Positions 7,858 to 62,845 of a DNA stretch of 64,000 nucleotides are shown here, piece after piece. The number at the start of each line of letters is the position of its first letter. Positions within the stretch are counted from its first letter, which is position 1. The stretch is from Abditibacteriota bacterium (GTDB taxonomy: Bacteria; Armatimonadota; UBA5829): contig JAFSVJ010000084.1 in the NCBI GenBank assembly GCA_017445025.1, positions 980-64,979 on the forward strand. Reading direction: 5' to 3'. Under the pieces are notes generated by a model. It was not told the DNA's origin and ran no database searches. It was given only the letters and a program-made list of their open reading frames with translations. The translations under genes were made by a program, and so were the position numbers.

Positions 7858-7917
7858 CCAAGGGCTCCCGAAAAGTTGAAGCATCTGCGAAAACTTTTTG
7901 GGAATGGGAAGGAGGGG
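7858..7917. repeat. 60-bp hairpin repeat module; perfect inverted copy at 11856-11915
   Basis: CCAAGGGCTCCCGAAAAGTTGAAGCATCTGCGAAAACTTTTTGGGAATGGGAAGGAGGGG; core also at ~47758-47800. Confidence 0.9.
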
Positions 7918-9092: not shown

Positions 9093-9378
9093 AACTTGGG
9101 TGTCCAAGTAATTACCATTATTATTATACCACAAATAAAACTTATTTGTCAAGGGGTAAAGTTGGTTTTTTTTAAACCGGAAAATATATTATGACAAAAT
9201 TTGTTTTTAAAAGTTTAACTTGGGCGTCCAAGTTATGACATTTATATTATACCACAAAACAAAACCATTTGTCAAGGCTTAAAACCACTTTTTTTAAAAA
9301 AATTAAAAAAAATTATTTTTTTTAGTTTCTGTTCTTTTTGAAACAGATTAATAATGTTTAAACTTAGACGTCCAAGTT
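9093..9378 (-). promoter_or_regulatory. Tandem sigma70 promoters with three palindromic operators
   Basis: TTGACA-18-(TGG)TATAAT at 9152-9123 and 9275-9246; operators near consensus AACTTGGACGTCCAAGTT at 9093-9110, 9217-9234, 9361-9378. Confidence 0.82.
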
Positions 9379-9451: not shown

Positions 9452-10498
9452 TTAATAATCTATTTTAAACAATTCGTTTTTAATAATATCATCGCTTAAA
9501 TGTATATAATAATCCATGGCAACGGATTTTTGCTTATGACCACAGGCAAGGTCTATAATGGCAAAATTAACTTTATCTTGCAAAGCCATAACAAAAGCCC
9601 TTGATAAGAAGGTGTGTCTGCAACTGTGAGTTGAATGGTTCATACCTAATTTTTTTATATATGTATTTATGGCTGAAATTATGGATATACACTTTGCAGA
9701 ATTATAATCCATAAGTTTTGTGCTATCACCATAGTTGTTATTCAATAAATATTTAATAATATGTTTTATTTTTGGATGTATATAAACTTTTCTGATACTG
9801 CTTTCGGTTTTTCCGTCTCTTACAAACATATAATCTTCTTTTAAATGGACGTCTGCTCTTTTCATATTTAGGATTTCACTCACTCTGCAACCTGTATATA
9901 ATAATATTAATAATAATCTTGCATGTCTTTTGGCATATATATCACCCTTATTCAGTAAATCCCAAAGTTTCTCAATCTCTTCATAAGTAAATACACTTTG
10001 TTCTCTCTTCTTGGGGGTCTTTTGTCCTTTGCTTGATAAAAGGGAAACTATATTTTTGTCTATTATTTCATTTTTGAGAGCATATTCAAAAATCGTGTTG
10101 AGCACCATTTTGAACTGTAAAAATGTGGGTTTTGTATAGCCGGACAATTTCTCATTCAGATCCTTATATTTTATTGAATTGATTGGTGTGTTAAAAAGAC
10201 TCTCTAAGGTTTTGGCAGTTTTTCTGTATACAATCAAAGTGTTTTCCGGTATGTTGTTATTGACTTTTTCTTTATATATAATATTATAAATATCTTTAAG
10301 TGTTATATGTTTTTTATTCTTATTTCCCGCAATATAATTGTTTAAATAGTTTTCCGCTTCTGTTTTTGTGGCAAAACTGCCCAATAATTTTCTTTTCCTT
10401 TTATTATTATCTATATAAGAAGGGGTATAAACTAAATAGGGTTTATCTCTTCCGTCTTTAACTTTATAAACAGTCCCTTGATTTTGTCCCCGTTTCAT
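9452..10498 (-). CDS. Tyrosine recombinase/integrase (putative invertase)
   Basis: Catalytic set R (YTGCRVSE), K (DGKT), HxxR (HSCRHT), H (CGH), Y (DYYIH); phage-integrase-like N-terminus. Confidence 0.93.
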   Translation of the reverse strand: MKRGQNQGTVYKVKDGRDKPYLVYTPSYIDNNKRKRKLLGSFATKTEAENYLNNYIAGNKNKKHITLKDIYNIIYKEKVNNNIPENTLIVYRKTAKTLESLFNTPINSIKYKDLNEKLSGYTKPTFLQFKMVLNTIFEYALKNEIIDKNIVSLLSSKGQKTPKKREQSVFTYEEIEKLWDLLNKGDIYAKRHARLLLILLYTGCRVSEILNMKRADVHLKEDYMFVRDGKTESSIRKVYIHPKIKHIIKYLLNNNYGDSTKLMDYNSAKCISIISAINTYIKKLGMNHSTHSCRHTFLSRAFVMALQDKVNFAIIDLACGHKQKSVAMDYYIHLSDDIIKNELFKIDY

Positions 10499-13712: not shown

Positions 13713-14873
13713 ATGAGAATTGTTTTTTTATGTGTAGATGTGCCATGGATGTTTTCTAAAGCCAGTCAATGGCGACATCATCAAATTATAGAGGCTTTAA
13801 AAGAAAATCATACAGTAAAAGTTATTGCCTTAAGCCCTAAAAATATAGAGGAATATAAAAAAAAATATAAAACAGATGCGGAATACATTGAATGTTATAT
13901 GCCTAGGGTAAAAAAGATAGATTATTTCCGCAAATCCCTAATATTGCCCCATTTCCCCAAACCTATCAAGTCCGGCTCACTTGAAGAAGCTATCCGAGAA
14001 TTTGCTCCGGATGTGATTTTCTATACCTCAATAGGATTTTTCCCCTATGTCAGAAATCTAAATGTTAAAAAAGTTTTCTCCGTCAACAAAGTTCTCTATA
14101 TGTATTACCAGAGATTGGCACTTATAGAAAATTGGTTCAACGGTTTTTTCCTCAAAAAAAGATGTTATTCCATAGGTGCTTGGGAACGACGGGCCTTTAT
14201 GGAATCGGATATGATACTCTTTTCCGTAATCAATGATATGGCAAACGTTAACTCCAACATGCAACTTCTAACTCCCAGCTATTATCTCCCCGCCTACATA
14301 GACAAGGTGGACTTTGGTCCTCTTTGTGAAAAGAAAAATATCATTATCTACGGAAATTACAACTCCATTGCGGGAAAAATAATGATAAAAGATTTTCTCG
14401 ACAACATTCACCCCGCCATAAAGAAAAAATACCCGGACTACAAAGCTTACGTGGTGGGTTTAGGCTCTGAGAAGCTTACCACAGATGAAAATATTGAAGT
14501 TTCTACTCTCTTAACGGAAGAGATACTAAAAGATGCCCGTGCTTTACTGTTGCCTTACAGAGTTCGAACAGACATGCAATTTCCCGCCATAAAAGCCATG
14601 AGTTATGGTGTTCCTATTATAGGTTTTGATAAAACTATGGATTTCTTTGCTGTTCGAAAAAAAGACGAATATTGCATTTCCGCCAAAAACCGAAACGAGC
14701 TTATAACTAAACTCCTAAAAGCCTTTGAATCCGACCCACCCCTTGAAAAAGTCAGAGAAAATGCCTTTAATTATGTAAAAGAACACTATACCAAGGAACT
14801 CTTTAAAAAGACCTTAGCTGACAGTTTAGACAAATTACAGGATAAAGTCACCTATATCAAAAGAAAATCATGA
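13713..14873 (+). CDS. Divergent GT-B (family 4-like) glycosyltransferase
   Basis: C-terminal LLLP......PAIKAMSYGVPII; size and context fit. Confidence 0.65.
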   Translation: MRIVFLCVDVPWMFSKASQWRHHQIIEALKENHTVKVIALSPKNIEEYKKKYKTDAEYIECYMPRVKKIDYFRKSLILPHFPKPIKSGSLEEAIREFAPDVIFYTSIGFFPYVRNLNVKKVFSVNKVLYMYYQRLALIENWFNGFFLKKRCYSIGAWERRAFMESDMILFSVINDMANVNSNMQLLTPSYYLPAYIDKVDFGPLCEKKNIIIYGNYNSIAGKIMIKDFLDNIHPAIKKKYPDYKAYVVGLGSEKLTTDENIEVSTLLTEEILKDARALLLPYRVRTDMQFPAIKAMSYGVPIIGFDKTMDFFAVRKKDEYCISAKNRNELITKLLKAFESDPPLEKVRENAFNYVKEHYTKELFKKTLADSLDKLQDKVTYIKRKS

Positions 14874-15772
14874 AACGATTTATTCTTTTACTTCTCTTTC
14901 TGTTTTTGTCCTTAAACATTTACGGAAAGGATGCAGAGCTCTGCGTTCTTGATGTGGGGCAAGGTCTCTGTTGTATAGTGACAAGTCCGGATAATCACAC
15001 TATGATTTTTGATTGTGGGACCTCAAGCAATCAAAGATGGAAGGACAATATGGCAGTTTTTCAGGATTCCTTATTGCCCTATTTGAAGAAAAAAAACATA
15101 AAAAATATAGATTATGTCATTCTTTCCCACCCGGATTTTGACCACTACTGCGGACTGGTGGGACTTTTGCACAAATATACGGTTGGGAAATATATAGAAA
15201 ACGGGGATTTCTCAACCACCATAGTTTACAAAGAATTACTAAAAGAAATTAAGAAAAAAAGTAATAAAAAAAAGGGGTTTGTCATCAAAGCCCAAGCAGG
15301 CTATTGGTATAACTTAGGCTCGGACATAAAATTTACCGTTCTTTCTCCCCCTTATAAATTTCCAAAAAGTAATGACAACGACATTTCCTTGGCTGTTCGT
15401 GTAGTATACAAAGACACATCCTTTGTTTTGACGGGAGACGCCACCCAAACAGCGGAAAGTGGAATGATCCGTCGTTTCGGAAGGAGCTTGAAAAGTTCTG
15501 TTTTGGTGGTGGGACACCACGGTTCTCGCACTTCCACATCAAGGGAGTTTTTGAAAATCTTAAAACCCAAAATTGCAATAATCTCTTGCGGAAAGAACAA
15601 TCAATACGGACACCCTCACAGAGAAGTTCTCTCAAATCTCAAAAGAGAAAAAGTCAAGATTTACAGAACGGACACAGAGGGTGGAGTGTTATGCACAAGT
15701 GACGGAAAGAGTATTAAAGTAAAGACAGGCATTAATCATTATAAAGTCAGAAGCAAAAGGAAGAAAAAGTGA
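14870..15772 (+). CDS. ComEC/Rec2-like metallo-beta-lactamase-fold hydrolase with signal peptide
   Basis: LDVGQG, DCG, SHPDFDHYCG, LTGD, GHHGSRTS, NQYGHPH. Confidence 0.88.
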   Translation: MKRFILLLLFLFLSLNIYGKDAELCVLDVGQGLCCIVTSPDNHTMIFDCGTSSNQRWKDNMAVFQDSLLPYLKKKNIKNIDYVILSHPDFDHYCGLVGLLHKYTVGKYIENGDFSTTIVYKELLKEIKKKSNKKKGFVIKAQAGYWYNLGSDIKFTVLSPPYKFPKSNDNDISLAVRVVYKDTSFVLTGDATQTAESGMIRRFGRSLKSSVLVVGHHGSRTSTSREFLKILKPKIAIISCGKNNQYGHPHREVLSNLKREKVKIYRTDTEGGVLCTSDGKSIKVKTGINHYKVRSKRKKK

Positions 15773-16704
15773 AATATTTTTGGTTCATATTGATTTTTCT
15801 CATTATATGGATAGTGGGATTCTGTGAACTTGTCACATTTTACCCACTTTATTTGCCTCTGATTATTGTGGTTATGCTGGGGATTTTGGCTTATACTTTT
15901 ATAATTGTAATTTTCTCCGCAATGATGAAAACCAAGGGAGTGGCTGATTATAAAATAACCAAAAAACTCTTTGAAAAAGGGGACAAACTGTCAAAGAGAA
16001 AGTATAGAGAACTGGTCAAGAGATTTCTCTATTCTCGAGGCTATGACAGACTAAAAATAGCCAAAAAAAACCCTTACGGCGTCCGTTGGTATGACAAAGA
16101 AGATATTATAATTTTAATTAAAGACAAGGAAAAAGCAGACCCGGATGTGGTGACACGAGCAGAAGAAGGAGCCATAGCTTTCGGCACCCCTCGAGCCATA
16201 ATTATAAGCCACAAAGGTTTTACCAATGAGGCTGTGACTGAAGCACAAGGAAAAAATATATTTCTTTGGGACACAAAAAGAATTATAGAAATGCTTGCTC
16301 GAGATATTAAAGAGGATGAAGAAAGACGGAAAACCAAGAGAATAAAACCCGATAAGGCAGAAAAAACTCACATTGAAGCTTTGGACTCTTGCTCAGGAGA
16401 AGAATTTAAGGAACTTTTGTGTAAAATCATGGAATCCAAGTATGAATTTAAGGGCAAGGAAGAAGAATATTTTAAATTTGTAATTGACGATAAAGTATAT
16501 ATGGTATATCCTTTAAAAGCTCCCGAAGGGGAGAGATTAAAAGAAAAAGATGTAGAAAGTATTTTTTGCAATATTTACGAAAAGGGATATTCCAACGCCA
16601 TGGTTGTGACCAACGGATATTATAACCAAAATATAGAAGATATGTCAAGAAAATTACAAATAGATGTGTGGAGTAGGGATAACATTATTTATTTGTTAAA
16701 ATAA
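15769..16704 (+). CDS. Membrane-anchored protein with two Mrr-like restriction-endonuclease-fold domains
   Basis: Two N-terminal TM helices; AIIIS..GFT.EA...A....I.LWD and SGEEF..L..AMVVTNGYY.....VWSR patterns. Confidence 0.6.
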   Translation: MKYFWFILIFLIIWIVGFCELVTFYPLYLPLIIVVMLGILAYTFIIVIFSAMMKTKGVADYKITKKLFEKGDKLSKRKYRELVKRFLYSRGYDRLKIAKKNPYGVRWYDKEDIIILIKDKEKADPDVVTRAEEGAIAFGTPRAIIISHKGFTNEAVTEAQGKNIFLWDTKRIIEMLARDIKEDEERRKTKRIKPDKAEKTHIEALDSCSGEEFKELLCKIMESKYEFKGKEEEYFKFVIDDKVYMVYPLKAPEGERLKEKDVESIFCNIYEKGYSNAMVVTNGYYNQNIEDMSRKLQIDVWSRDNIIYLLK

Positions 16705-16878
16705 GGAATTTTAATGAATAATGCATAATTTACTCAGGGGTCCCCAAAAATTGAGTTTGACGAAATTTTTAGGGGTTTGAGTGATGAATGCAGAATATTT
16801 TACCGACTACTAAATTTACCTTTACAAAATTTGTTAATACAGAAATAATCCCGATTTACCTATTTACAGTTTTTTATC

Positions 16879-19244: not shown

Positions 19245-19347
19245 TACTTATTTTTCAAATCACAAAAAACAGAGATGTCGGTATTCCTCTTCCCCCCTCT
19301 ACTACGTAAGATTTAATAAATTAATTAATAATTTTTTGGTTTTAATT

Positions 19348-19413
19348 ATGTTTTTTAGTGTTTTAATACCTGTATATAATGTGGAAAAATATCTAAGGCA
19401 AGCGGTGGATTAA
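19348..19413 (+). pseudogene. Duplicated 5' fragment of a GT2 gene (MFFSVLIPVYNVEKYLRQAVD*)
   Basis: Near-identical to the starts at 19696 and 20866; truncated at the TIR element. Confidence 0.85.
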
Positions 19414-19670
19414 AGAATGACAAATCACAAAAAAGCACAATTTTTCGCAAGAAATATCCTATTGTAGTCATCGACCCCAAGGGTTCCCAGAAAATTGAGC
19501 TTAGCGAAATTTTTAGGGATTTGGGGCTGTAGACTCGGAACAAAATGTCATTTTTCAAGGCAATAGCCATTGATAAAATGTTATTTTGTGAGAATCGTCA
19601 AGAAGACACGAAAATAGATATTTCGTTAAGCGAAAAATTAGGGATTTTTAGGTGAGTTGGTATTCTTTAA
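19410..19670 (+). mobile_element. MITE-like TIR element, copy 1 (with nested ~50-bp hairpin module)
   Basis: Ends TTAAAGAATGACAAATCAC / GTGAGTTGGTATTCTTTAA; body alignable by eye with 32729-32942 and 62530-62744. Confidence 0.72.
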
Positions 19671-19695
19671 TAAATATATTTTTTAAATTTTAATT

Positions 19696-20766
19696 ATGTT
19701 CTTTAGTGTTCTAATACCTGTATATAATGTGGAAAAATATCTAAGGCGATCGATAGATTCTGTCCTTGCCCAAGATTTTGATGACTACGAAATAATTCTC
19801 TGTGACGATGGGTCTACAGACCAAAGCGGTGCTATCTGTGACGAATATGCCCAAAAAGATAGCAAAATAAGGGTTATTCATAAAGAAAATGAAGGGCTTA
19901 TTCTAACCAGACGAGTTGCCATAAGAGCCTCAAAGGGAGAGTATCTGATTCACCTTGACTCTGATGACTATATGCTTCCCGGATGTCTTTCTTCAGCCAA
20001 GAAAGCCATAGACGAAACCGGGGCTGATATGGTTATATGGCAGTTTATATCCGGAGTCGGTAGCCACCCGGAAGATTTGTCTCATGTTTCAACCATTCCT
20101 TTCAAAGATGGTGAAATTTTTGAAGGAGAAGGTTTGTATAAACTGAGAAAGCATTATATTCTTGCCACCGGGGACGCCCATATCGGTGCCATGTTCCAAA
20201 AGGCAACCAAAAGAGATATTAACGATATAGATTTTGATTATCACACCTATCCAAAAATTTACTGTATGGAAGATGTGCTTCAATCTGTGGTTTTGTATAA
20301 TAATGTAAAAAAAGCTGTTTTTATAAATAAACCTTTCATTTACTACAGCACAAATCCGGAGGGCATAACCCATGGTGTAACCTCCTCAAAATTGAAAAAT
20401 TATATTGATACCATATTTTTTATGTGGACCGTTCAAGATAAAATCATTGTTAATTGGTTTACCGAAGAGAGTATTTTTAAGAAAATACGAGGCCACCGAA
20501 TAAAAACTCTTTTGCACAAAATTGCTCAAATGAAACGATTGGCCCAAAAAAATGAGTTTATAGAATTTTGTGATTATATAAACAATCACGACTCTCTGCA
20601 AAAATATTATAACAGTTATAATGATGAATTTCTTGGCAGTTATTTGAAACTAATACTGTTTTTCTTTAAAAGAAAAAAATATGCTTCTCTTTGGTATGTG
20701 ATGGATATAACGGAAAAGCTATATCCTACCCTTAAAGGTATAGCAAAAAAAATGAGGGGGAAATAA
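19696..20766 (+). CDS. Glycosyltransferase family 2
   Basis: SVLIPVYN.EKYL, DDGSTD, DSDD (DxD), ED motif. Confidence 0.93.
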   Translation: MFFSVLIPVYNVEKYLRRSIDSVLAQDFDDYEIILCDDGSTDQSGAICDEYAQKDSKIRVIHKENEGLILTRRVAIRASKGEYLIHLDSDDYMLPGCLSSAKKAIDETGADMVIWQFISGVGSHPEDLSHVSTIPFKDGEIFEGEGLYKLRKHYILATGDAHIGAMFQKATKRDINDIDFDYHTYPKIYCMEDVLQSVVLYNNVKKAVFINKPFIYYSTNPEGITHGVTSSKLKNYIDTIFFMWTVQDKIIVNWFTEESIFKKIRGHRIKTLLHKIAQMKRLAQKNEFIEFCDYINNHDSLQKYYNSYNDEFLGSYLKLILFFFKRKKYASLWYVMDITEKLYPTLKGIAKKMRGK

Positions 20767-20865
20767 AGCACAATTTTCCAAATCACAAAATAAGAGATTT
20801 TTAGGTTGGTATTCCTCCCCCTACTACGTAATATTTAATAAATTAAATGTTTTTTTGTTTTAATT

Positions 20866-21879
20866 ATGTTCTTTAGTGTTCTAATACCTGTATATAATGT
20901 GGAAAAATATCTAAGACAAGCGGTGGATTCTGTCCTTGCCCAAGATTTTGATGACTATGAAATAATTCTCTGTGACGATGGGTCTACAGACCAAAGCGGT
21001 GCTATCTGTGATGAGTATGCCCAAAAAGATAGCAAAATAAGGGTTATTCACAAAGAAAATGAAGGGCTTATTCTCACCAGACGAGCTGCCATAAGAGCCT
21101 CTGAGGGTGAATATTTAATGCATCTTGACTCTGATGACTATATGCTCCCCGGATGTCTTTCATCTGTCAAAAAAGCCATAGACGACACAGGGGCTGATAT
21201 GGTTATATGGAAAATGATATACGGAAAGAAAAACCAAAGTGACAAAGAGGTAATCTCTCCCATTCCCTTTAAAGACGGAGAGATTTTTGAGGGTGAAAAA
21301 CTGTCTCTCTTGCGAAAAGAGTTTTTAAATAAAGGAAAACTCCAAAATATGTATATCAAAGCCACCAGACGTGACATAAACAACATAGATTTTGACTATT
21401 CTCAATACAAAATCTATAAAGCTGAGGATATTTTCCAGTCCCTTCATCTCTTTGACGCCACCACAAAAGCTGTCTTTATTGACAAGGTTTTCTACTATTA
21501 CAGAAGAGATAATATGACCAGTATTTCCAATAAGTTAAACAAGGATACTCTTAAAAAACATCTGTCATCATATTTTTTGCTTTGGCAATGGGAAGAAGAC
21601 TATATCAAAAAATGGTTTGAAGGCTCTGAAATGCAAAGTGATTTAAGCACAAGAGCTTTAAAAGCCATAACAACAAAAGCAAAACAAATGGGAACCGTTA
21701 CAAAAAGAGACGAGTTTAAAGATTTTCTTAACTGGGTTATGAGTAATGACAAAATAAACTTTTATTTTGATAATTATAACAAAAACTCTGTGGGACCTTA
21801 TGCCAAGTTTCTTTTTTGGCTTATTAAAAACAAAAAATACAATATACTATATAATGTTGTCAAAATAATAAGATTATGA
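20866..21879 (+). CDS. Glycosyltransferase family 2 (tandem paralog)
   Basis: Same motifs; first ~115 codons nearly identical to the 19696 gene. Confidence 0.93.
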   Translation: MFFSVLIPVYNVEKYLRQAVDSVLAQDFDDYEIILCDDGSTDQSGAICDEYAQKDSKIRVIHKENEGLILTRRAAIRASEGEYLMHLDSDDYMLPGCLSSVKKAIDDTGADMVIWKMIYGKKNQSDKEVISPIPFKDGEIFEGEKLSLLRKEFLNKGKLQNMYIKATRRDINNIDFDYSQYKIYKAEDIFQSLHLFDATTKAVFIDKVFYYYRRDNMTSISNKLNKDTLKKHLSSYFLLWQWEEDYIKKWFEGSEMQSDLSTRALKAITTKAKQMGTVTKRDEFKDFLNWVMSNDKINFYFDNYNKNSVGPYAKFLFWLIKNKKYNILYNVVKIIRL

Positions 21880-25715: not shown

Positions 25716-26035
25716 TTCACAATGCACAATGCAAAATGCACAATAAATTCTTAGAAATTTATTTCATAAATTTCGTTTTTAAAAATGCAAAATGCACAAT
25801 ATAACTCCCGTCTTCCCAAATCCCAAAAAGTTTCGGACGGCCCCCCCACGGTCGCTTCGCTCCTAATTCCATCCCCCCGTCAGTCCTTCGGACTGCCACC
25901 CCCCAAGCTTCGCGTAGGGGGACAGAATTTTTAGGGGGTTCATTAATAGAAAAGCGAAACTTTTTGGGGTTTGAGTAGGGGGGACTAAAAGGGAGTAGCT
26001 GTCGCTTAGGGGGACAGACTTTTTTGGATTTTGAG

Positions 26036-30119: not shown

Positions 30120-30238
30120 AATTTATCTCCTATAATATTATTACTTATTTCAAATCACAAATCACAACACGTGGTGCGAAGCACCACGACTTTGATTTTT
30201 GCTTTTTGATTATTACTTTTTAAATTTGCAACGCAAAT

Positions 30239-31397: not shown

Positions 31398-32642
31398 TTA
31401 ATCTCTTTTAAATATATCCCTTGTATAAACCTTATCTATAACATCATCAAGACACTTGTCATATCTGTTGGCAATAATGGCTTTTGACTCTTTCTTAAAC
31501 TTTTCTAAATCATTTACCACTAAACTGCCAAAAAAAGTGGATCCGTCTTCAAGGGAAGGCTCGTAAATAATCACCTTGGCGCCTTTACCCTTAACTCTCT
31601 TCATAATACCCTGTATAGAGCTTTGACGGAAATTGTCGGAATTAGATTTCATGGTCAAACGGAAAACACCGATTATAACCTCTTTCTCTTTTGAAACATC
31701 AAAATCACTGTTTTCTTCATAGGCTCCCGCTATTTCAAGGACTCTCTCGGCTATGAAATCTTTTCTTGTCCTATTGGAATTCACAACTGCCTCAATTAAA
31801 TTTTCAGGCACTTCTTCATAATTAGCCAAAAGTTGCTTTGTATCCTTTGGCAAACAATATCCTCCATATCCGAAAGAAGGGTTGTTATAATGATTTCCTA
31901 TTCTCGGGTCCAAACATACACCGTCAATAATATTTTGAGTGTTAAGCCCCTTCATTTCGGCGTAAGTATCAAGTTCATTAAAGAAAGATACTCTCAGAGC
32001 CAAATATGTGTTTGCAAAAAGCTTTACTGCCTCAGCCTCCGTATAACCCATGAGAAGACTGTCAATATTCTCCTTAAGGGCTCCTTCCTTCAAAAGCAGA
32101 GTAAACTCATTTGCCACTTTTACAAGTCTTTTGTTTTCTGTATCAATTCCCACAATAATTCTTGAAGGATAGAGATTATCATAAAGAGCCTTAGACTCTC
32201 TCAAAAACTCGGGACAGAATATAATATTGTCGCAATGGTATTTCTCCCTTGCATGAGCGGTAAAACCTACGGGAATAGTGGATTTTATAACTATAATTGC
32301 TTCCGGATTATTCTCAATAACAAGTTTGATAACTGCTTCTACAGAAGAAGTATCAAAAAAGTTCTTCTTCGGATCATAGTTTGTAGGAGTGGCAACAATT
32401 ACAAAATCCGCATTCTTATAAGCTGCGGCTCCGTCCATTGTGGCAACAAGGGAAAGATCCTTTTCGCTCAAATACTTTTCAATATATTCGTCATGAATGG
32501 GAGATACTCGCTTGTTTATCATATCCACCTTTTCCGGGATAATGTCAACAGCAGTCACATTATTGTTTTGTGCCAAAAGAACACCCACAGACAAACCTAC
32601 GTATCCGGTTCCCGCTACTGCAATATTATATTTTTTACTCAT
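31398..32642 (-). CDS. ugd: UDP-glucose 6-dehydrogenase
   Basis: [35 protein letters not shown]. Confidence 0.96.
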
Positions 32643-32646
32643 ATAT

Positions 32647-32728
32647 TTATCCTAAATAAAATTCTTTATACCATTTGGCAAATTTTCGCAAGCCCTCACG
32701 TAAGCTTGTATTTGGTCTAAAACCAAAA
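32647..32728 (-). pseudogene. Duplicated 3' end of the epimerase gene ([26 protein letters not shown])
   Basis: Same peptide as 32950-33031; differences are only synonymous. Confidence 0.88.
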
Positions 32729-32942
32729 GTTAAAAATCCCAAATCACCAAAAAGATCAATTTTTTATAAGAAATAACGAATTGTCATCACCACTCGTAGC
32801 GAATGAGTAGTGGGACAAAAGATATAAGGCGTTAGCCATTATAAATTTTGTTTCAATACGATTGAGCGTCAGAGCCGGTAAGACAAGAGTTATTTCGTTA
32901 AATAAAAAATTAGAGATTTTTAGGGGAGTTGGAATTTTTAAC
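32729..32942 (+). mobile_element. MITE-like TIR element, copy 2
   Basis: Ends GTTAAAAATCCCAAATCACC / GGGGAGTTGGAATTTTTAAC; lies between 82-bp direct duplications. Confidence 0.8.
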
Positions 32943-32949
32943 GATAAAA

Positions 32950-34032
32950 CTATCCTAAATAAAATTCTTTATACCATTTGGCAAATTTACGAAGGCCTTC
33001 TCTTAAGCTTGTGTTTGGTCTAAAACCAAAATCTCTCTCTAATGAGGATGTATCGGCATAAGTCACCGGCACATCTCCCGCTTGCATAGGCACAAGTTCC
33101 TTATGAGCCTCAAAATCATAATCCTTAGGCAAAACTCCCGCAGAAACCAATTCCTCTTGAAGAATTTTCACAAAATCCAGAAGATTTTCCGGGTTTGAAT
33201 TACCTATATTATAAATAGCATAAGGCGGAATGGGTAAACCATCCTCCCCTACTTGCTTTGCGGGAGCTTTCTCCATTACTCTTTTTACACCTTCAACTAT
33301 ATCGTCCACAAAAGTGAAATCTCTCTTACAATTACCAAAGTTGAAAATCTTAATGGTTTCACCTTTTATTAATTTATTGGTAAAACCAAAATATGCCATA
33401 TCCGGTCGTCCCGCAGGACCGTAAACCGTGAAAAATCTAAGCCCCGTTGAAGGAATATTGTAAAGCTTGGAATAGGCGTGAGCCAAAAGTTCATTGGACT
33501 TTTTGGTAGCAGCGTAAAGAGAAACAGGATTGTCCACCTTGTCCTCTATAGAATAAGGAACTTTTTTGTTTGAACCGTAAACGGAAGAGGAAGAGGCATA
33601 AACCAAGTGTTCCACACCCTTATTGCCATTATCATAAGAATGTCGACAAGCTTCCAAAATATTATAAAATCCTATTAAATTGGCTTCAATATACACATCC
33701 GGGTGGTCTATAGAATAACGAACCCCTGCTTGGGCTGCTAAATTAACAACCACATCAAAATTATATTCTTTAAAAAGTTTATCTACCAAGGCTTTATCCG
33801 CTATGGAACCCTTGACAAATACCCAGTTATTGTCACCTTTAGCTTCTGTTTCTATAAGTCTTAATCTGTAATCTTTTATTGATGTGTCATAATAATCGTT
33901 TACATTATCCAGCCCCACTACCTTTATGGGGTTAACTTCTTTTAAGAGTTTTAAAACCAAATTGGCTCCTATAAATCCTGCCGCTCCCGTGACTAAAACA
34001 CATTTCCCTTTTAAATCTATATTTGATTTCAT
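32950..34032 (-). CDS. UDP-glucuronate 4-epimerase (CapI/GAE-like SDR)
   Basis: TGAAGFIG, LAAQAGVRYS, ASSSSVYG, YAATK, RFFTVYGP.GRPDMA, GDV..TYAD. Confidence 0.93.
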   Translation of the reverse strand: MKSNIDLKGKCVLVTGAAGFIGANLVLKLLKEVNPIKVVGLDNVNDYYDTSIKDYRLRLIETEAKGDNNWVFVKGSIADKALVDKLFKEYNFDVVVNLAAQAGVRYSIDHPDVYIEANLIGFYNILEACRHSYDNGNKGVEHLVYASSSSVYGSNKKVPYSIEDKVDNPVSLYAATKKSNELLAHAYSKLYNIPSTGLRFFTVYGPAGRPDMAYFGFTNKLIKGETIKIFNFGNCKRDFTFVDDIVEGVKRVMEKAPAKQVGEDGLPIPPYAIYNIGNSNPENLLDFVKILQEELVSAGVLPKDYDFEAHKELVPMQAGDVPVTYADTSSLERDFGFRPNTSLREGLRKFAKWYKEFYLG

Positions 34033-34766: not shown

Positions 34767-35084
34767 TTTCAGGTCCTGTGATTAATTAAGTGGTGCGAAA
34801 CACCATTTTAAAATGCAAAATGTGATTTTCTACGAAAATCACTATTCCCCCCCCCGTCAGTTGCCTTTGGCAACTGCCACCCCCCATTTCCTACGGAAAT
34901 AGGGGGACACATTTACCGGCATCTAAAATTAACAGAGCAACTATAATATTTAGAGCCTGCCAACCAAAGTGGGGCGAAGCCCCACACTACCCCCTTTTCA
35001 AAAGGGGGTGCCCCATAGGGGCGGGGGATTTATTTTGCATTCTGCATTTAATTATGCATTATGCATTTTGCATTTTGCATTGAA

Positions 35085-47722: not shown

Positions 47723-47849
47723 TGCACCACTCCCCCTGCTCAAATCCCTAAAACCCATTCCCGAAAAGTTGAAGCATCTGCGAAAACTTTTTGGGAATGG
47801 GTTTTAGGGGTGAGAAATAAGCAAAGCTTTTTTGTAAAAACGACAACAA

Positions 47850-47937
47850 CTTGTCGTTTTTAGCAAGAGCCGGAAAATCTACGATTTTTAGGTGCCCGAC
47901 GGCAAAAATCTTTATCACTAAAGATTTTTGACTAGAC
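47850..47937 (+). repeat. 88-bp dispersed repeat, near-identical copy at 61108-61195
   Basis: CTTGTCGTTTTTAGCAAGAGCCGGAAAATCTA.GATTTT..GGTGCCCGACGGCAAAAATCTTTATCACTAAAGATTTTTGACTAGAC. Confidence 0.9.
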
Positions 47938-48058
47938 ATTTAGGAGGGTGACTAATTATAGACATATCTAAAAAATTACACTCAATCTTTTAAAACTCAT
48001 GAATTGCATTAAGAAAGTGAATAAAAAATCAACGCCAATATCTCAATACTATCCATAA

Positions 48059-55843: not shown

Positions 55844-57868
55844 TTATTCTTCTTTAGCCTTTTCTGCTTCGGCTATGATTTTTTGTGCCACGTCTCTTGG
55901 GGCTTGTTCGTAATGGTCAAAAGTTGTTGTAAATTTTCCACGTCCTGAGGAAATAGAACGAAGGTCAATACAATACTTTTGAATTTCATTGGCGGGAACA
56001 TTTGCCTTAACCACTGCTCTTCCACCATGAAGTGTATCTTGTCCGTAAACTCTTCCACGCTTGGTGTTAAGATCTCCGATAACATCACCAACACATTCTG
56101 CGGGAACTATGATCTCTATATCCATTATAGGCTCAAGGATTATTGGACCGGCGTTCATAGCAGCTTCCTTAAAAGCTGTCTTGGCGGCCATTTGGAAAGC
56201 GATATCCTTGGCGTCTACAGGGTGAGTAGATCCATCAATTACAGAACAAATAATGTCCACACAGGGGTAACCTGCTTGAATACCCTTTGACATAGCATCT
56301 TGAACTCCCTTATCAACAGAAGGGATAAATTGTCTTGGAATAGCTCCACCAACAACCTTATCAATAAATTCGTAACCTTTACCGGGTTCGTTAGGCTCAA
56401 TAACAATGTGAGCGTCACCAAACTGACCGGCACCACCGGTTTGCTTCTTGTGTCTCTTTCGACAGTCGGCTTTCTTTGTAATGGTTTCACGATATGCAAT
56501 CTTAGGAGTTTGAGTGGTCACTTCAACACCAAACTTTTTCTTAATTTTTTCAAGAATGATACCTAATTGGTAGTCACCTAAGGATGCGATAATTGTTTCA
56601 CCTGTGGATTGGTCACGGAATGTCTTAAATGTAGGATCTTCTTCCATAATCTTTTGGAAAGAAGGACCCATTTTATCTTCAGCTGCTTTGTTTGCGGCAA
56701 ATACAGCAAGAGAATATACAGGGTTGGGGAAGTCAAGAGGAGGAAATGCTTCCGCACTCTTGTCATTTGTTAAAGTATCTCCGGTTTGAACTGAAACCAA
56801 CTTTGCAACGGCACCAATGTCACCGGCTTTAACTTCTGCCACAGCGTTTTGCTTTGCACCAAAGATAGAGTAAACTTGACCCACTCTTTCTTCCTTTTCT
56901 TGGTTTACATCGTAAACTCTGCTATCACCCTTGAAAGTGCCTGAGGTTACCTTGAAGTAGGTTAATTTTCCAACATAAGGGTCGGCAATGGTCTTGAATA
57001 CTCTTGCTTTCATAACTCCATCTTCAACGGAAGGAGCAGGAGCATAGGTAGATATAAAGTTTAAAAGGGTATCTATACCAACGTTCATTGCGGCAGAACC
57101 AACCAAAACAGGAACAAAAGAACCATCTTTGATGGCGGACTTAATTCCGGTGGTCAAATCTTCGTCGGAAAGGGTGCCTTCTTCAAAGAATTTTTCCATA
57201 AGAGCGTCATCTGTTTCGGCAATGGCTTCAATTAATTCTTCTCTAATGGTTTCAACTTGGTCTTCCATATCGGCCGGAACGGGAGCTTCGTCACTGGTCT
57301 TGGTTGCCGGGTTGTAAATGTAAGCTTTTTTACTTATAACATCCACAATACCTTTGAAGTTAGCTTCTTTTCCTATGGGGATATATACAGGAGTCACACC
57401 GTTTCCGTAAGCTTCTTTCAAAGCTTCGCAAGTAGCAGTCCAGTTCATATTATCTTTATCTCTTTTATTAATGAAAACAATCTTTGCGTTTCCGGCGGCG
57501 GCGGCAAGTTCCATAGCGTTGTCTGTTCCCACTTCAACAATACCGGAACCATCAACAACAACAAGTGCGGTTTCAACAGCACTCATGGCACCTACAACAT
57601 CACCCACAAAATCAGCAAAACCGGGAGTATCTATAACATTAATCTTGGTATCTTTCCATTCAATGGGACACATAGACATAAAAAGAGACATTTTTCTGGC
57701 TTTTTCGTCTTCTCCATAGTCACAAACCGTGTTACCGTCATCAATTTTACCAAGTCTGTTTATAGCATTTGTAGTAAAGAGCATAGCTTCAATAACGCTG
57801 GTTTTACCAACTCCGCCATGTCCCGCTACAGCAATATTTCTGATTTGTTCGGTTGCATAATCTTTCAT
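55844..57868 (-). CDS. fusA: Elongation factor G paralog (EF-G2/FusA2-like)
   Basis: GHGGVGKT, DTPG, NKRD, KKQTGG.GQFG; switch I reads EKARKMSL instead of canonical RGITI. Confidence 0.88.
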   Translation of the reverse strand: MKDYATEQIRNIAVAGHGGVGKTSVIEAMLFTTNAINRLGKIDDGNTVCDYGEDEKARKMSLFMSMCPIEWKDTKINVIDTPGFADFVGDVVGAMSAVETALVVVDGSGIVEVGTDNAMELAAAAGNAKIVFINKRDKDNMNWTATCEALKEAYGNGVTPVYIPIGKEANFKGIVDVISKKAYIYNPATKTSDEAPVPADMEDQVETIREELIEAIAETDDALMEKFFEEGTLSDEDLTTGIKSAIKDGSFVPVLVGSAAMNVGIDTLLNFISTYAPAPSVEDGVMKARVFKTIADPYVGKLTYFKVTSGTFKGDSRVYDVNQEKEERVGQVYSIFGAKQNAVAEVKAGDIGAVAKLVSVQTGDTLTNDKSAEAFPPLDFPNPVYSLAVFAANKAAEDKMGPSFQKIMEEDPTFKTFRDQSTGETIIASLGDYQLGIILEKIKKKFGVEVTTQTPKIAYRETITKKADCRKRHKKQTGGAGQFGDAHIVIEPNEPGKGYEFIDKVVGGAIPRQFIPSVDKGVQDAMSKGIQAGYPCVDIICSVIDGSTHPVDAKDIAFQMAAKTAFKEAAMNAGPIILEPIMDIEIIVPAECVGDVIGDLNTKRGRVYGQDTLHGGRAVVKANVPANEIQKYCIDLRSISSGRGKFTTTFDHYEQAPRDVAQKIIAEAEKAKEE

Positions 57869-58049
57869 AATCAACTTTCCTTTTATACTTTATATAAAAA
57901 TAAACTTAATCAAATATAAAAATCGGCATAACAAAAAGAGCGTCTAAAAAAGTGACACCATTATTATTATACCACATTTTCTTTTTTAAAACAAGTTTTA
58001 AGGCCCTTTTTGGAAAATATTTTTTTACTTATATAATATAACAAAAATA

Positions 58050-60884: not shown

Positions 60885-61107
60885 AATTACCTCTATGTTT
60901 AAAATACTATCTTTAATTTCTATTCAATACCATATATATTATACTATTTTTATATCACAAATTACAATTATAATGTACAATTGACAGTCCCAAAAAATTG
61001 CGGATCTGAAAAGTTTGACTATGTGCTAATCCCATCTTTTCCAAATCCCTAAAACCCATTCCCAAAAAGTCGTAGCGTAGCAAGACTTTTTGGGATTTGG
61101 GCAACTG

Positions 61108-61195
61108 CTTGTCGTTTTTAGCAAGAGCCGGAAAATCTATGATTTTGCGGTGCCCGACGGCAAAAATCTTTATCACTAAAGATTTTTGACTAGAC
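61108..61195 (+). repeat. 88-bp dispersed repeat (copy of 47850-47937)
   Basis: Near-identical sequence; a related hairpin module lies upstream of both copies. Confidence 0.9.
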
Positions 61196-61362
61196 CCTTG
61201 GAATTGGGCAAATACGAAATTAAAATTTAAATAAGCCTTTTACATAACAGCTTTTTGGGTGGTATGTTTTTTTCACATTCGAAGACAGCAAATAAAAATA
61301 TTCTACCCAAAAAGGTGTTTATAGGTCCTACTCAAGATTTTGGATTTGCTCAATTCCAAGGG
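61195..61362. mobile_element. Second MITE-like TIR element
   Basis: CCCTTGGAATTGGGCAAAT...ATTTGCTCAATTCCAAGGG terminal inverted repeats; partial inverted copy near 23317-23372. Confidence 0.55.
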
Positions 61363-61513
61363 CTCCCGAAAAGTTGAACAAAGTGAAACTTTTTGGGAAT
61401 GGAAATAGAAGCATAGGAAAAAAGGGGAGTTTAAGAGAACCTGCCCTGCCCCCCTTGGGGGGCAACGATGAAAAACAAAAAGTTTTTCATCGTGGGGGGT
61501 AATTATACATCAT

Positions 61514-62515
61514 TCAAGCCTTAGGTATTATAATCTCCGGGTCGATTACTATATTTTTCTCTAAAGTCCATTTTTGATTAATATTATCCACAGACATATC
61601 AAACAAAGCCTTGGTTATCTTACTATAATCCACTCTAAGCTCGATATAATCGTATTCCAAATTTAGATTCATATCACCCGAAGTGTAAATAATGAATTTA
61701 CTATCTTTTATATATTCATTATATTTTTTAAGATAATATTTAGCTGAAACAAATAAATTATAATTCATAAAAACTATGGCATCAGGAGGCTCTGTAATGG
61801 ATTCAAAGCCTTTAGTTAAAACTTTATTGGATTCCTTTTTTTCTCGGATAATATTTTGGAAAAAATAATAATAGTTTTCTTTCATATAATTACTGTAGAA
61901 TTTATCTATTGTTGAACCGTAATTGTTAAACTCATTCACAAAATCAAAAACTATCACTTTTTCAAATTTATTCTCTTCTAATATTTTTATAAGTTGCCTA
62001 TGCCTTAATATTTCGTTAATACTGACTTTTGCATAAGGGGACAACTCATTTCCAAACTCAACTATGGGAATATGTTTCTCTCTTGCTATGTCAATAAGTT
62101 TACAATTCCACTGATATAGATTAATAATACAAGCAATTTCATTTATGTTTACAGGACACTTATCTTTAATATCTTCATAAAATACGGGAATCCATTGTGT
62201 ATCTGAAAAAAGTTTATATAGGCCGGAAGATATGACAAAATTACGAATTCCAACTAATAAAGGGTCATAAAAAAATTGTTCATCTAATATAATTACAACA
62301 TATCTTTTAAAAGATTTGAGGTAAGTTCCGCTGCCATGACGTCTTTCAATAATATTATCCCTTTCAAGCTCAGAGAAAGCATTTCTGACAGTCAAAACGG
62401 AAACAGAAAGCTCCTTGGCAAGATCAGCCTCGCTCTGTATCCTCTTGTCCGGGTCAAAATCATTGGTCTTTATTAAATTTTTAATATATTCAATAACTTT
62501 CTCTTTCTTTGTCAT
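61514..62515 (-). CDS. GntR-family transcriptional regulator (probably AraR-like, with a LacI-type sensor domain)
   Basis: SE.DLAKELSVS.LTVRNA...L.....I.RRHGSGTY; C-terminal PDAIV and periplasmic-binding-like size. Confidence 0.85.
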   Translation of the reverse strand: MTKKEKVIEYIKNLIKTNDFDPDKRIQSEADLAKELSVSVLTVRNAFSELERDNIIERRHGSGTYLKSFKRYVVIILDEQFFYDPLLVGIRNFVISSGLYKLFSDTQWIPVFYEDIKDKCPVNINEIACIINLYQWNCKLIDIAREKHIPIVEFGNELSPYAKVSINEILRHRQLIKILEENKFEKVIVFDFVNEFNNYGSTIDKFYSNYMKENYYYFFQNIIREKKESNKVLTKGFESITEPPDAIVFMNYNLFVSAKYYLKKYNEYIKDSKFIIYTSGDMNLNLEYDYIELRVDYSKITKALFDMSVDNINQKWTLEKNIVIDPEIIIPKA

Positions 62516-62529
62516 AATTAATATCACTT

Positions 62530-62744
62530 AAAACAAAATTCCAACTCCCCTAAAAATATCTAATTTTTTGCTTAACGAAATAACTTTTGTCTTACCAACC
62601 CTGACGCTCATTCGTCTTGAAACAAAATACCTACGGACTTTGTCCTTGCTCTTTTGCCCCAATACTCATTCGCTACGGGCGGTGACGACAATGCATTATT
62701 TCTTACAAAAAATTGATCTTTTTGGTGATTTGGGATTTTGTTTT
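62530..62744 (-). mobile_element. MITE-like TIR element, copy 3
   Basis: Ends AAAACAAAATTCCAACTCCCC / GGTGATTTGGGATTTTGTTTT; reverse-complement homolog of 32729-32942. Confidence 0.8.
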
Positions 62745-62845
62745 GGCAAGATCAGCCTCGCTCTGTATCCTCTTGTCCGGGTCAAAATCATTGGTCTTTA
62801 TTAAATTTTTAATATATTCAATAACTTTCTCTTTTTTAGTCATAA
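62743..62845 (-). pseudogene. Duplicated 5' fragment of the GntR gene (MTKKEK...ADLAK)
   Basis: 103-bp direct repeat of 62415-62517 with two synonymous differences. Confidence 0.88.

Follow-up and report, generated by a model that had tools for sequence, protein, structure and literature searches.

Small hairpin repeats are common in bacteria and are usually treated as passive intergenic filler. Integrative elements, such as the islands in tRNA 3′ ends and SXT in prfC, bring a replacement gene end and leave the old terminus behind as a stub. The attC sites of integrons, which are imperfect palindromes, have conserved ends around a variable centre and act as folded single strands beside gene cassettes. 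The target duplications of miniature elements (MITEs) comprise a few bp only. Three further groups are close to the repeats reported here. REPINs, mobilised by RAYT transposases, are REP doublets that form hairpins. Their two ends are conserved, the spacer between them is less so, and compensatory changes are frequent; in the family described, two conserved 16-mers start 71 bp apart (PMC3116915). Bacterial MITEs such as ERIC, Correia/NEMIS and RUP are shorter than 500 bp, AT-rich and bounded by inverted ends, and their transcripts are predicted to fold stably (PMC10969869). The elements of the IS1549/IS1634 type are 1.5–2 kb long and encode a DDE transposase, the family norm being AT-rich duplications of 5–6 bp; for their long direct repeats, the account in PMC2266710 gives no mechanism as proposed by 2008.

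The DNA studied here comes from an uncultured gut bacterium, and the whole stretch that was analysed, 64 kb in length, is referred to as the window. It contains three homologous non-coding elements of a ~215-nt class, called E in this work, all of them full-length: E1 (19409–19671, forward strand, 263 nt), E2 (32729–32942, forward strand, 214 nt) and E3 (62530–62744, reverse strand, 215 nt), lying 13 and 30 kb apart. E2 runs on the forward strand from its left end, CAAATCAC, to its right end, GGAGTTGG. An earlier note on this DNA had placed the three elements at these positions, and blastn of each element against the window recovered them all. E2 and E3 are 85% identical over 206 nt, while E1 is alike in its two ends of ~55 nt only (79–85%); its core is longer and different, and a small hairpin repeat (repeat family D9) is nested in it at 19480–19523. 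Two end patterns of 22–25 nt each match exactly three places in the 64 kb, the copies of E, and shuffled sequences gave means of 0.01 and 0.00 matches, none of 100 shuffles reaching three. E is a real repeated non-coding element with inverted repeats, as the earlier note had described it. Its inverted ends span 25–26 nt and are 81–85% complementary, no reading frame is open in all copies, and the three full copies are accompanied by two remnants. E1 and E2 carry the tetranucleotide TTAA at each of their outer ends, E3 at the right end only; being itself a palindrome, TTAA may simply belong to the stem.

E2 folds as one hairpin of −67.3 kcal/mol (z = −9.6), the reverse strand reaching −62.4. 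Across the three copies the stem comprises 71 pairs with 93.9% of cells paired, and 15 of these pairs carry compensatory changes among only three sequences; shuffles gave on average 6.5 pairs changed on both sides, none of 500 reached the observed 15, and slid controls gave 0–3. The pairing extends through the whole unit of 214–263 nt and not through the termini alone, and each of the three sequences keeps its own compensated stem. The architecture is one of conserved ends of ~45 nt around a variable core, the whole unit being one long imperfect palindrome. Rfam 15 gave no match anywhere in the window, and the best permissive matches on E2 (E = 2–6.4) fell far under the gathering scores.

With the REPINs described in PMC3116915, E shares a symmetric hairpin, conserved ends, a variable spacer and compensatory changes, as well as being non-coding, multi-copy and mostly extragenic; the host also carries other small palindromic repeats, like REPIN genomes. 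In contrast, E is 214–263 nt long and paired throughout, where a REPIN consists of two short REP units near 100 nt; the RAYT (Y1 HUH) transposase of REP–RAYT systems is absent from the ORFs of the window; and E is flanked by duplicated gene ends, a feature for which the consulted passages of PMC3116915 hold no report. Like MITEs in general, E is shorter than 500 bp, AT-rich, non-coding, bounded by terminal inverted repeats and present in several copies, but it differs from them in that the whole unit pairs, the ends co-vary and every copy comes with 82–103 nt of duplicated gene end. In our view E belongs to a new family of dispersed repeats that fold into hairpins, with a REPIN- or foldback-MITE-like build. 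An attC identity was considered and set aside: E2 alone starts with GTTAAAA and ends with TTTTAAC, the reverse of the attC order, E1 and E3 differ, and no array is present. The only tyrosine recombinase (9452–10498), ~9 kb away, reaches 19.1 bits, the cut-off for integron integrases being 265.

The earlier note had seen no transposase in the window, and among its 74 distinct ORFs with a length of 90 aa or more none presents a transposase domain (NCBIfam was applied to nine of them). Beyond the window, the 26-nt consensus pattern of the right end had no match in 185,579 species genomes, E2 had no match in plasmids and phages by blastn set for distant similarity, and a protein-level search through ORFs reading into E gave no candidates for other copies; a lone marginal HMMER match to a 1118-aa protein (E = 7e-4) was judged irrelevant. 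Of ten small ORFs, nine are absent from the protein collection and the remaining one is a singleton. The search for related epimerase loci retained 80 of 582 relatives, the best at 80% protein identity; all belong to unrelated gut taxa and none provides a usable empty site. Within 1.3 Mb of these loci E was not found (nhmmer best E = 0.28; one blastn match of 39 nt, E = 5.5e-4). GC skew follows gene orientation, and from it no consistent relation of E to the replication strands emerged.

Every full-length copy of E in the window is tied to a long direct duplication of a gene terminus, of 84, 82 and 103 nt around E1, E2 and E3, respectively. This association had been pointed out in the earlier note, whose lengths are correct for the epimerase (82) and GntR (103) genes; the ~70 nt given for GT2 are actually 84. 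Its account of the orientation also holds: in all three loci the truncated stub adjoins the CAAATCAC end of E and the intact gene faces the GGAGTTGG (CCAACTC) end, so that E has the gene body on the same side each time, an agreement with a chance of 1 in 4 under a symmetric model. No gene is lost at any of the loci, again as first described. A repeat search of the whole window returned 19 direct-repeat families, three of which (D3, D5 and D6) are the duplications at E; the remaining 16 contain no gene-end stubs, and the other hairpin repeat families of the window lack gene-end duplications. Beyond the duplications, 3, 13 and 10 of 25 nt are identical on the outer side, and on the inner side 6, 4 and 4 of 25. 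For the epimerase and GntR genes, the outer limit of the homology is 0–2 nt away from the stop or start codon; in the case of GT2 the homology takes in the leader common to the paralogues. E is followed on its right by unrelated spacers of 4–12 nt.

At the epimerase locus, the stub (32647–32728, reverse strand) holds the last 79 coding nt of a second epimerase allele together with its TAA stop, and is still joined to the start of ugd (ATG at 32642) with its AGGA ribosome-binding site. A spacer of 7 nt (32943–32949), which is not homologous to the flank of the stub, separates the right end of E2 from the stop of the intact NAD-dependent epimerase gene (32950–34032, reverse strand; Pfam PF01370, E = 1.9e-52). 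The second copy of the duplication, 32950–33031, represents the last 82 nt of this gene and is identical to the stub in 74 of 82 nt. Both copies encode the same 26 residues: the 8 differences fall in 6 codons, are all synonymous, and include two double-step codon changes and TAA/TAG. Random substitution kept the peptide unchanged in none of 100,000 trials. A dead stub does not diverge by synonymous changes alone, and both copies therefore diverged as functional genes. Neither the stub nor the intact end is closer than the other to the related epimerase loci, and 17 nt at the junction of the stub with E2 are common to the other copy. Compared with P0006, an allele from another sample, the intact epimerase has 8 differences, none of them in residues 45–267. 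Neither for this gene nor for GntR is there a paralogue or a second copy of E in the window.

The GT2 stub (19328–19411, forward strand) comprises 20 nt of leader and the first 64 nt of a GT2 gene, and its stop codon is created at the junction with E1. The leader and intact gene of GT2-A follow (19676–20766, forward strand; ATG at 19696), beginning with the second copy of the duplication (19676–19759), which is 88% identical to the first over 84 nt. The peptide of the stub is the N-terminus of the neighbouring paralogue GT2-B, not of the GT2-A gene that follows; by our own count on the alignment the stub differs from GT2-B by 3 synonymous changes, and its mismatches with the adjacent intact copy reach to within 4 nt of E1. 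The ~400 nt at the 5′ side of GT2-A are 90% identical to GT2-B. GT2-A is in fact a hybrid, GT2-B-like over ~115 residues and then like P0009, an allele from another sample, from which it differs by ~28 changes in residues 1–150 and by 1 in residues 151–356. Two internally deleted remnants of E occur here, both on the forward strand and without flanking duplication: one at 19256–19290, upstream of the stub, in which the left-end motif is joined to the right-end motif, and one at 20779–20815, 12 nt past the stop of GT2-A and ~50 nt before the start of GT2-B.

At the third locus, the stub (62743–62845, reverse strand) is formed by the first 101 nt of a GntR gene and 2 nt of its leader. It retains the native promoter-like site (62890 to 62862) and is read as an annotated 46-aa ORF (P0038), which ends 12 codons inside E3. 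The spacer has 12 nt (62518–62529, reverse strand) and leads to the start region of the intact GntR-family regulator gene (61514–62517, reverse strand; ATG at 62515; Pfam PF00392), in which 62415–62517 is the second copy of the duplication. The copies are identical in 101 of 103 nt; both differences are synonymous and lie within the first 9 coding nt (P = 0.03). They could be a strain chimera of the metagenome assembly, since 93 identical nt follow. Only two relatives of the GntR protein were found, a partial one at 100% identity and another at 52%.

The earlier note had also proposed that E rewires the untranslated regions of its neighbours, and this applies in part: at two loci, GT2-A and GntR, the 5′ leader of the intact gene now contains E, which would act there as a strong RNA hairpin. 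A promoter scan detected nothing convincing inside E facing these two genes.

What found no support was the origin suggested for the duplications, namely simple long target-site duplications of the IS1549/IS1634 type. E resembles those insertion sequences in being placed between long direct repeats. It departs from the IS1634 family in having no DDE transposase, either in the element or in the ORFs of the window, and in repeats that measure 82–103 nt in all three cases, carry allele-type substitutions and end at coding boundaries. As two copies of one target, the repeats of GntR would be acceptable, while those of the epimerase and GT2 are contrary to it. Fresh target-site duplications are thus not supported, given the synonymous differences (8 at the epimerase), the GT2-B-type stub, the homology limits and the unrelated spacers. 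The allele-type differences, together with the limits and the spacers, indicate instead that stub and intact copy derive from different functional alleles or paralogues. A diversity-generating retroelement was also discarded, as the differences are not specific to adenine and the ORFs of the window include no reverse transcriptase.

As the leading explanation, which we hold tentatively, we propose that E marks joints where a gene end led by E was spliced 64–103 nt inside a resident homologue. The incoming segment would start exactly at the left (CAAATCAC) terminus of E and continue through E and the spacer into a complete gene terminus. It would have been joined to the resident homologous gene 64–103 nt inside the terminus of that gene, the other side of the event being resolved by homologous recombination deeper inside the gene. 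The resident terminal piece would remain as a stub with its own flank, seen in the promoter at GntR and in the ugd junction at the epimerase. This direction of transfer is the one we infer; the left joint would be illegitimate, with 0–4 nt of microhomology at GT2, and a stable hairpin may be what sets the end of the incoming DNA. Support for such joints comes from the intact genes of GT2-A and the epimerase, whose E-proximal parts are the divergent ones relative to the alleles of other samples, although the mosaic patterns against P0009 and P0006 do not tell which strain is the recombinant. The one-sided gene body in three of three loci and the other hairpin families, free of duplications, also favour it, and so does the remnant directly before GT2-B, which offers an example of the proposed donor arrangement, E–leader–gene. 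By analogy, the outcome may be likened to that of tRNA islands and SXT, with direct repeats of a gene terminus, the gene kept whole and a slightly different terminus brought in; those elements, however, measure kilobases, encode an integrase and use one fixed target, whereas E has ~215 nt, no gene and three unrelated genes as neighbours. Several observations weigh against the joints. The copies are three, and neither donor, empty site nor second genome has been seen. The left terminus of E is precise in all three loci and the joints are narrow (64, 82 and 103 nt), as if an enzyme with a ruler were at work. The GntR duplication is 98% identical, as in a young target duplication. In addition, the GT2 resident had an upstream remnant of E and a leader, so that a fully homologous exchange was possible, yet it was not used. 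A more novel reading, in which E is the fixed end of a one-ended device for gene-end transfer, DNA that starts exactly at the left foot of the hairpin and extends into the adjacent gene being protected or cut at the hairpin, moved between strains or paralogues and spliced 60–100 nt inside a homologue, seems rather unlikely to us.

The most serious competitor, although we give it distinctly less credence than the splicing of E-led gene ends, is transposition with long duplications: a non-autonomous E would insert by a staggered cut of ~90–115 nt and be kept where the duplication spans a gene terminus, the arrangement having arisen in another lineage or gene context before being moved into this genome or partly overwritten by homologous recombination, from which the allele-type differences would come. 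A single mechanism would then cover the stub–E–gene-end topology, the precise ends of E and the similar lengths (84–100, 82 + 7 and 103 + 12 nt) in three of three copies; the size, AT-richness and inverted ends of E are MITE-like, and the 101 of 103 identical nt at GntR fit as well. The IS1549/IS1634 elements provide the precedent, with direct repeats of 8–514 bp in the account of PMC2266710, a spread to be compared with 84, 82 and 103 nt in three copies only here, though the usual duplication of the IS1634 family in that account is 5–6 bp. An origin in place is rejected at the epimerase by the substitution trials. An origin in a donor genome, with later transfer by recombination, keeps the modest probability of this reading; it would need a later crossover no farther than 17 nt (epimerase) or 4 nt (GT2) from where E begins on the left, a stretch that does not suffice for homologous exchange. 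Transposition also fits poorly with homology limits at 0–2 nt from stop or start codons, and with remnants of E that have no duplication before GT2-B and the GT2 stub; compensatory changes that keep the hairpin are unexpected of terminal repeats bound by a transposase, and no transposase is encoded among the 74 ORFs.

The remaining readings are less probable. Long palindromes are known deletion end-points, and a local rearrangement, in which a tandem duplication or unequal crossover of paralogues flanks E and a hairpin-stimulated deletion of the upstream copy ends at the foot of E, would suit the tandem paralogues of GT2, each preceded by E or its remnant and a shared leader, as well as the hybrid GT2-A. 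We regard it as improbable overall: the epimerase and GntR have neither paralogue nor second E in the window, the 10% synonymous divergence at the epimerase implies an old duplication whose stub nevertheless shows no decay, and on three occasions the deletion would have had to stop at one and the same terminus of E. Slightly less credible still is a Campbell-type spread, where a circle of E and one gene-end copy, excised between the direct repeats, integrates in the corresponding gene end of another strain by a single homologous crossover and forms the duplication anew from two allelic versions. It needs no transposase, and its direct repeats would span just the homologous segment, stop where the homology stops and carry differences of the allele type. 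It leaves unexplained the first duplication and the arrival of E at three unrelated genes, and it predicts reciprocal chimeras, unlike the GT2 stub, whose differences from the intact copy reach as far as the junction; moreover, 82 nt at 90% identity are a poor substrate, and the circle would need to include the unrelated spacers at the right end. An assembly artefact, with strain variants threaded in series around a repeat, is the explanation to which we attach the least probability. The contig of 79,451 bp is metagenome-assembled, the named genomes nearest to it by their proteins are likewise assembled from metagenomes, allele-like differences are typical of co-assembled strains, and the 93 identical nt at GntR would permit a switch of path. 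On the other hand, the stub–E junctions share 4 nt at GT2 and 17 nt at the epimerase, less than the k-mers that assemblers use, and so require real reads, and the same architecture recurs at three loci with three different sequences of E, each having its own compensated stem.

Every full-length E in this window sits where one gene end appears to have replaced another and the gene was kept. Under either the splicing of E-led gene ends or transposition, the long direct repeats make insertions of E reversible by ordinary recombination, and those of 82–103 nt would let host recombination remove E again. To our knowledge, no small non-autonomous element making ~100-nt target duplications was known before, and if transposition is the correct reading, E would be a handle on the chemistry of such long duplications. 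If the transfer device were true, a non-coding hairpin of 215 nt would work as a portable boundary for exchanging gene termini with their leaders; the gene would stay whole, and the long repeats so created would keep the hairpin removable. If the link between E and joints is general, it would represent a route for swapping gene ends together with leaders and regulation, here in polysaccharide-synthesis genes and a regulator, and E-like elements may serve as markers of recombination joints in genomes known from metagenomes only.

Three homologous copies of E, a hairpin-forming non-coding repeat of about 215 nt, are present where the earlier note had placed them: E1 at 19409-19671 and E2 at 32729-32942 on the forward strand, and E3 at 62530-62744 on the reverse strand. 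E1 belongs to a polysaccharide locus that comprises GT1, GT2 and Wzy genes; E2 is located between an epimerase gene and ugd; and E3 separates the GntR gene from its promoter. E2 and E3 present 85% identity over 206 nt, and E1, with a longer core, has only two ends of about 55 nt in common with them. Two end patterns (22 and 25 nt) matched only these copies in the window, whose G+C content is 36%, with about 0 matches in shuffles.

Each copy lies, as had been noted, between direct repeats of a gene terminus. The duplication at E1 has 84 nt with 88% identity (20 nt of leader and 64 nt of the GT2 gene); that at E2 has 82 nt, 74 of them identical (the last 79 nt of the epimerase gene and the stop codon); and that at E3 has 103 nt, 101 of them identical (2 nt of leader and 101 nt of the regulator gene). 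The constant orientation was also confirmed, since at all three loci the CAAATCAC end adjoins the truncated terminus, or stub, while the intact gene is on the side of the GGAGTTGG end. When the whole window was searched for repeats, 19 direct-repeat families were obtained, three of which are these duplications; no gene-end stubs were found among the other 16.

Either strand of E2 forms a single long hairpin (z about -9.6; 0 of 200 shuffles fold as well). The alignment of the three copies gave a consensus structure of 71 pairs with 93.9% of cells paired, in which 15 pairs are changed on both sides, against a shuffle mean of 6.5 (0 of 500 as high) and 0-3 in slid controls. The outermost 9-10 bp differ among copies and are perfectly complementary inside each one. 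In every copy the forward-strand fold is the more stable one (-80.6 vs -76.5, -67.3 vs -62.4 and -69.5 vs -56.4 kcal/mol), and the centre holds three conserved G-U pairs; these two features hint that E takes a strand-specific form, as RNA or as single-stranded DNA. None of the reading frames stays open in all three copies, and no Rfam match was obtained at gathering scores, the permissive matches having E-values of 2 or worse.

Several other small palindromic repeat families occur in intergenic DNA, none of them with gene-end duplication. One family of about 45-50 nt, with stems of the type CCC(A/G)AAAA...TTTTTGGG, has copies at 16736-16779, 61359-61402, 7866-7917, 47759-47810, 25928-25990 and 19480-19523, one copy being nested in the E1 core. 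A composite block of several hairpins (about 160-200 nt) occurs twice, with 88-92% identity, in the intergenic regions at 47741-47940 and 61042-61200; the ends of its first hairpin resemble those of E. At least six short G+C-rich hairpins are clustered at 34780-35030, between a nucleotidyl-transferase gene and galK, and between argG and argF, at 30151-30190, a doubled CAAATCAC motif precedes a similar hairpin of the GTGGTGCGAAGCACCAC type.

The earlier note had regarded E as a non-autonomous element of IS1549/IS1634 type. The long repeats of that reading stand, but four results, from the epimerase, GntR, GT2 and the homology limits, say that they are not fresh target-site duplications. Between the epimerase stub and the intact end there are 8 nucleotide differences, spread over six codons and all synonymous, including CGT/AGA, TTG/CTT and TAA/TAG; eight random substitutions left the peptide unchanged in 0 of 100,000 trials. 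Such divergence, unlike that of a non-functional stub, indicates that both genes were still functional as the copies diverged. The GntR copies differ only twice, both times synonymously (P = 0.03 for this alone) and within the first 9 coding nt, followed by 93 identical nt. In the GT2 stub, differences from the neighbouring intact gene (GT2-A) reach to within 4 nt of E, and the encoded peptide is identical to the N-terminus of GT2-B, the paralogue that follows. Upstream of the stub, a stretch of 100 nt is homologous (85%) to the region between GT2-A and GT2-B. Each of these two stretches contains an internally deleted E remnant (19256-19290 and 20779-20815), with the left-end motif fused to the right-end motif; the remnants lie 12 nt past a stop codon, with a GT2 start 50-60 nt further on, and are paralogous and without flanking duplication. 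The homology ends abruptly at the three loci: past the outer limit 3, 13 and 10 of 25 positions agree, and past the inner one 6, 4 and 4 of 25. In the epimerase and GntR cases the outer limit falls 0-2 nt past the stop or start codon, and between the intact terminus and the right end of E there are spacers of 7 and 12 nt, unrelated to each other's context. These limits speak against a fresh duplication, since nothing would make a staggered cut stop at a codon boundary, while the homology of two alleles in different contexts would have reason to stop there.

Comparisons with alleles from other metagenome samples showed about 28 differences between GT2-A and P0009 in the first 150 residues and one in the last 206, and eight residue differences between the epimerase and P0006, none at positions 45-267. 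In both proteins the E-proximal part is among the divergent ones, which would fit a recombination tract starting at E, where either strain could be the recombinant. The tandem GT2-A and GT2-B (19696-21879) present 90% nucleotide identity over the first ~400 nt and then diverge, with 55% protein identity overall; together with the different N-terminal 150 residues in P0009, this points to a probable mosaic evolution of the catalytic-domain end.

From the order of the parts (stub, E, spacer, complete terminus), their unvarying orientation, the finding that the copies are alleles or paralogues, and the homology limits, we propose tentatively, with somewhat less than even confidence, that a segment with one end at the left foot of E, extending through E into the gene, would have been joined to a resident homologue, 64-103 nt inside its terminus, its far end being resolved by homologous recombination. 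The left foot may serve as the joint if the ~100-bp hairpin caps the incoming strand against nucleases or is itself cleaved at that point. The remnant that directly precedes GT2-B, without duplication, shows that the E-leader-gene arrangement exists alone; on the other hand, two features speak against the proposal and for an enzyme: the left end is used precisely, and the joints fall within a narrow range of positions. The chief rival, in which the long-duplication transposition of the earlier note took place in a donor and was followed by recombination, needs crossovers 4-17 nt from E at two loci, and we regard it as rather unlikely. Tandem duplication followed by a hairpin-ended deletion is plausible at GT2 only and is improbable as a whole; Campbell-type integration of a circle carrying E and one repeat is slightly more improbable still. 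An assembly error could be the source of the two GntR differences; at the other two loci the junctions have just 4 and 17 nt in common with the other copy, which makes it unlikely there, and as a general explanation it is very improbable.

Among known elements, IS1549 and IS1634 are described with direct repeats of 8-514 bp of unexplained mechanism, against a family norm of 5-6 bp (PMC2266710), and a 6 bp repeat is given for a Geobacillus member of the IS1634 family (PMC8024623). Prokaryotic MITEs are presented in a review as AT-rich, smaller than 500 bp, with terminal inverted repeats and flanking direct repeats, long ones not being mentioned in the part consulted (PMC10969869); a limited literature search found no report of long target duplications of bacterial MITEs. 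The conserved ends, variable centre and compensatory changes described for REPINs are all found in E, which is larger (PMC3116915). In its workings E is most like a REPIN or foldback MITE, and it could not be placed in any named family by the defining features.

An exact pattern taken from the right end of E had 0 matches in 185,579 species genomes; E was not found in 80 epimerase loci, none of close relatives, nor in plasmids and phages; and a search for proteins reading into E, as a route to other copies, returned none. In agreement with the earlier note, no transposase domain occurs among the window's 74 distinct ORFs with 90 aa or more (NCBIfam was run on nine of them). The sole recombinase among the window ORFs is a tyrosine recombinase (9452-10498) that belongs to the phage-integrase type and carries an Arm DNA-binding domain. 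Its gene lies a short way upstream of the polysaccharide locus and has next to it, at 9116-9299, a pair of direct repeats of 61 nt with 75% identity. In the middle of the glycosyltransferase cluster, 14870-16704 encodes a metallo-beta-lactamase-fold protein and a protein with an Mrr-type restriction endonuclease domain. An EF-G-like gene (55844-57874) lies directly upstream of the S8-L6-L18-S5-L15-SecY-Adk-Map block, a place usually taken by S10 and early spc genes. GC skew over 1-64000 is positive to ~24 kb and then negative, tracking the change in gene direction around 25-26 kb.

The GT2 stub ORF has its stop at the foot of E1; the epimerase stub still carries the ribosome-binding site of ugd; and the intact GntR start lies 14 nt past the hairpin. 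The native promoter-like site at GntR (62890 to 62862, 10/12 matches) is upstream of a 46-aa ORF that ends inside E3, and would drive this ORF. With direct repeats of 82-103 nt, the removal of E by host recombination would be possible.
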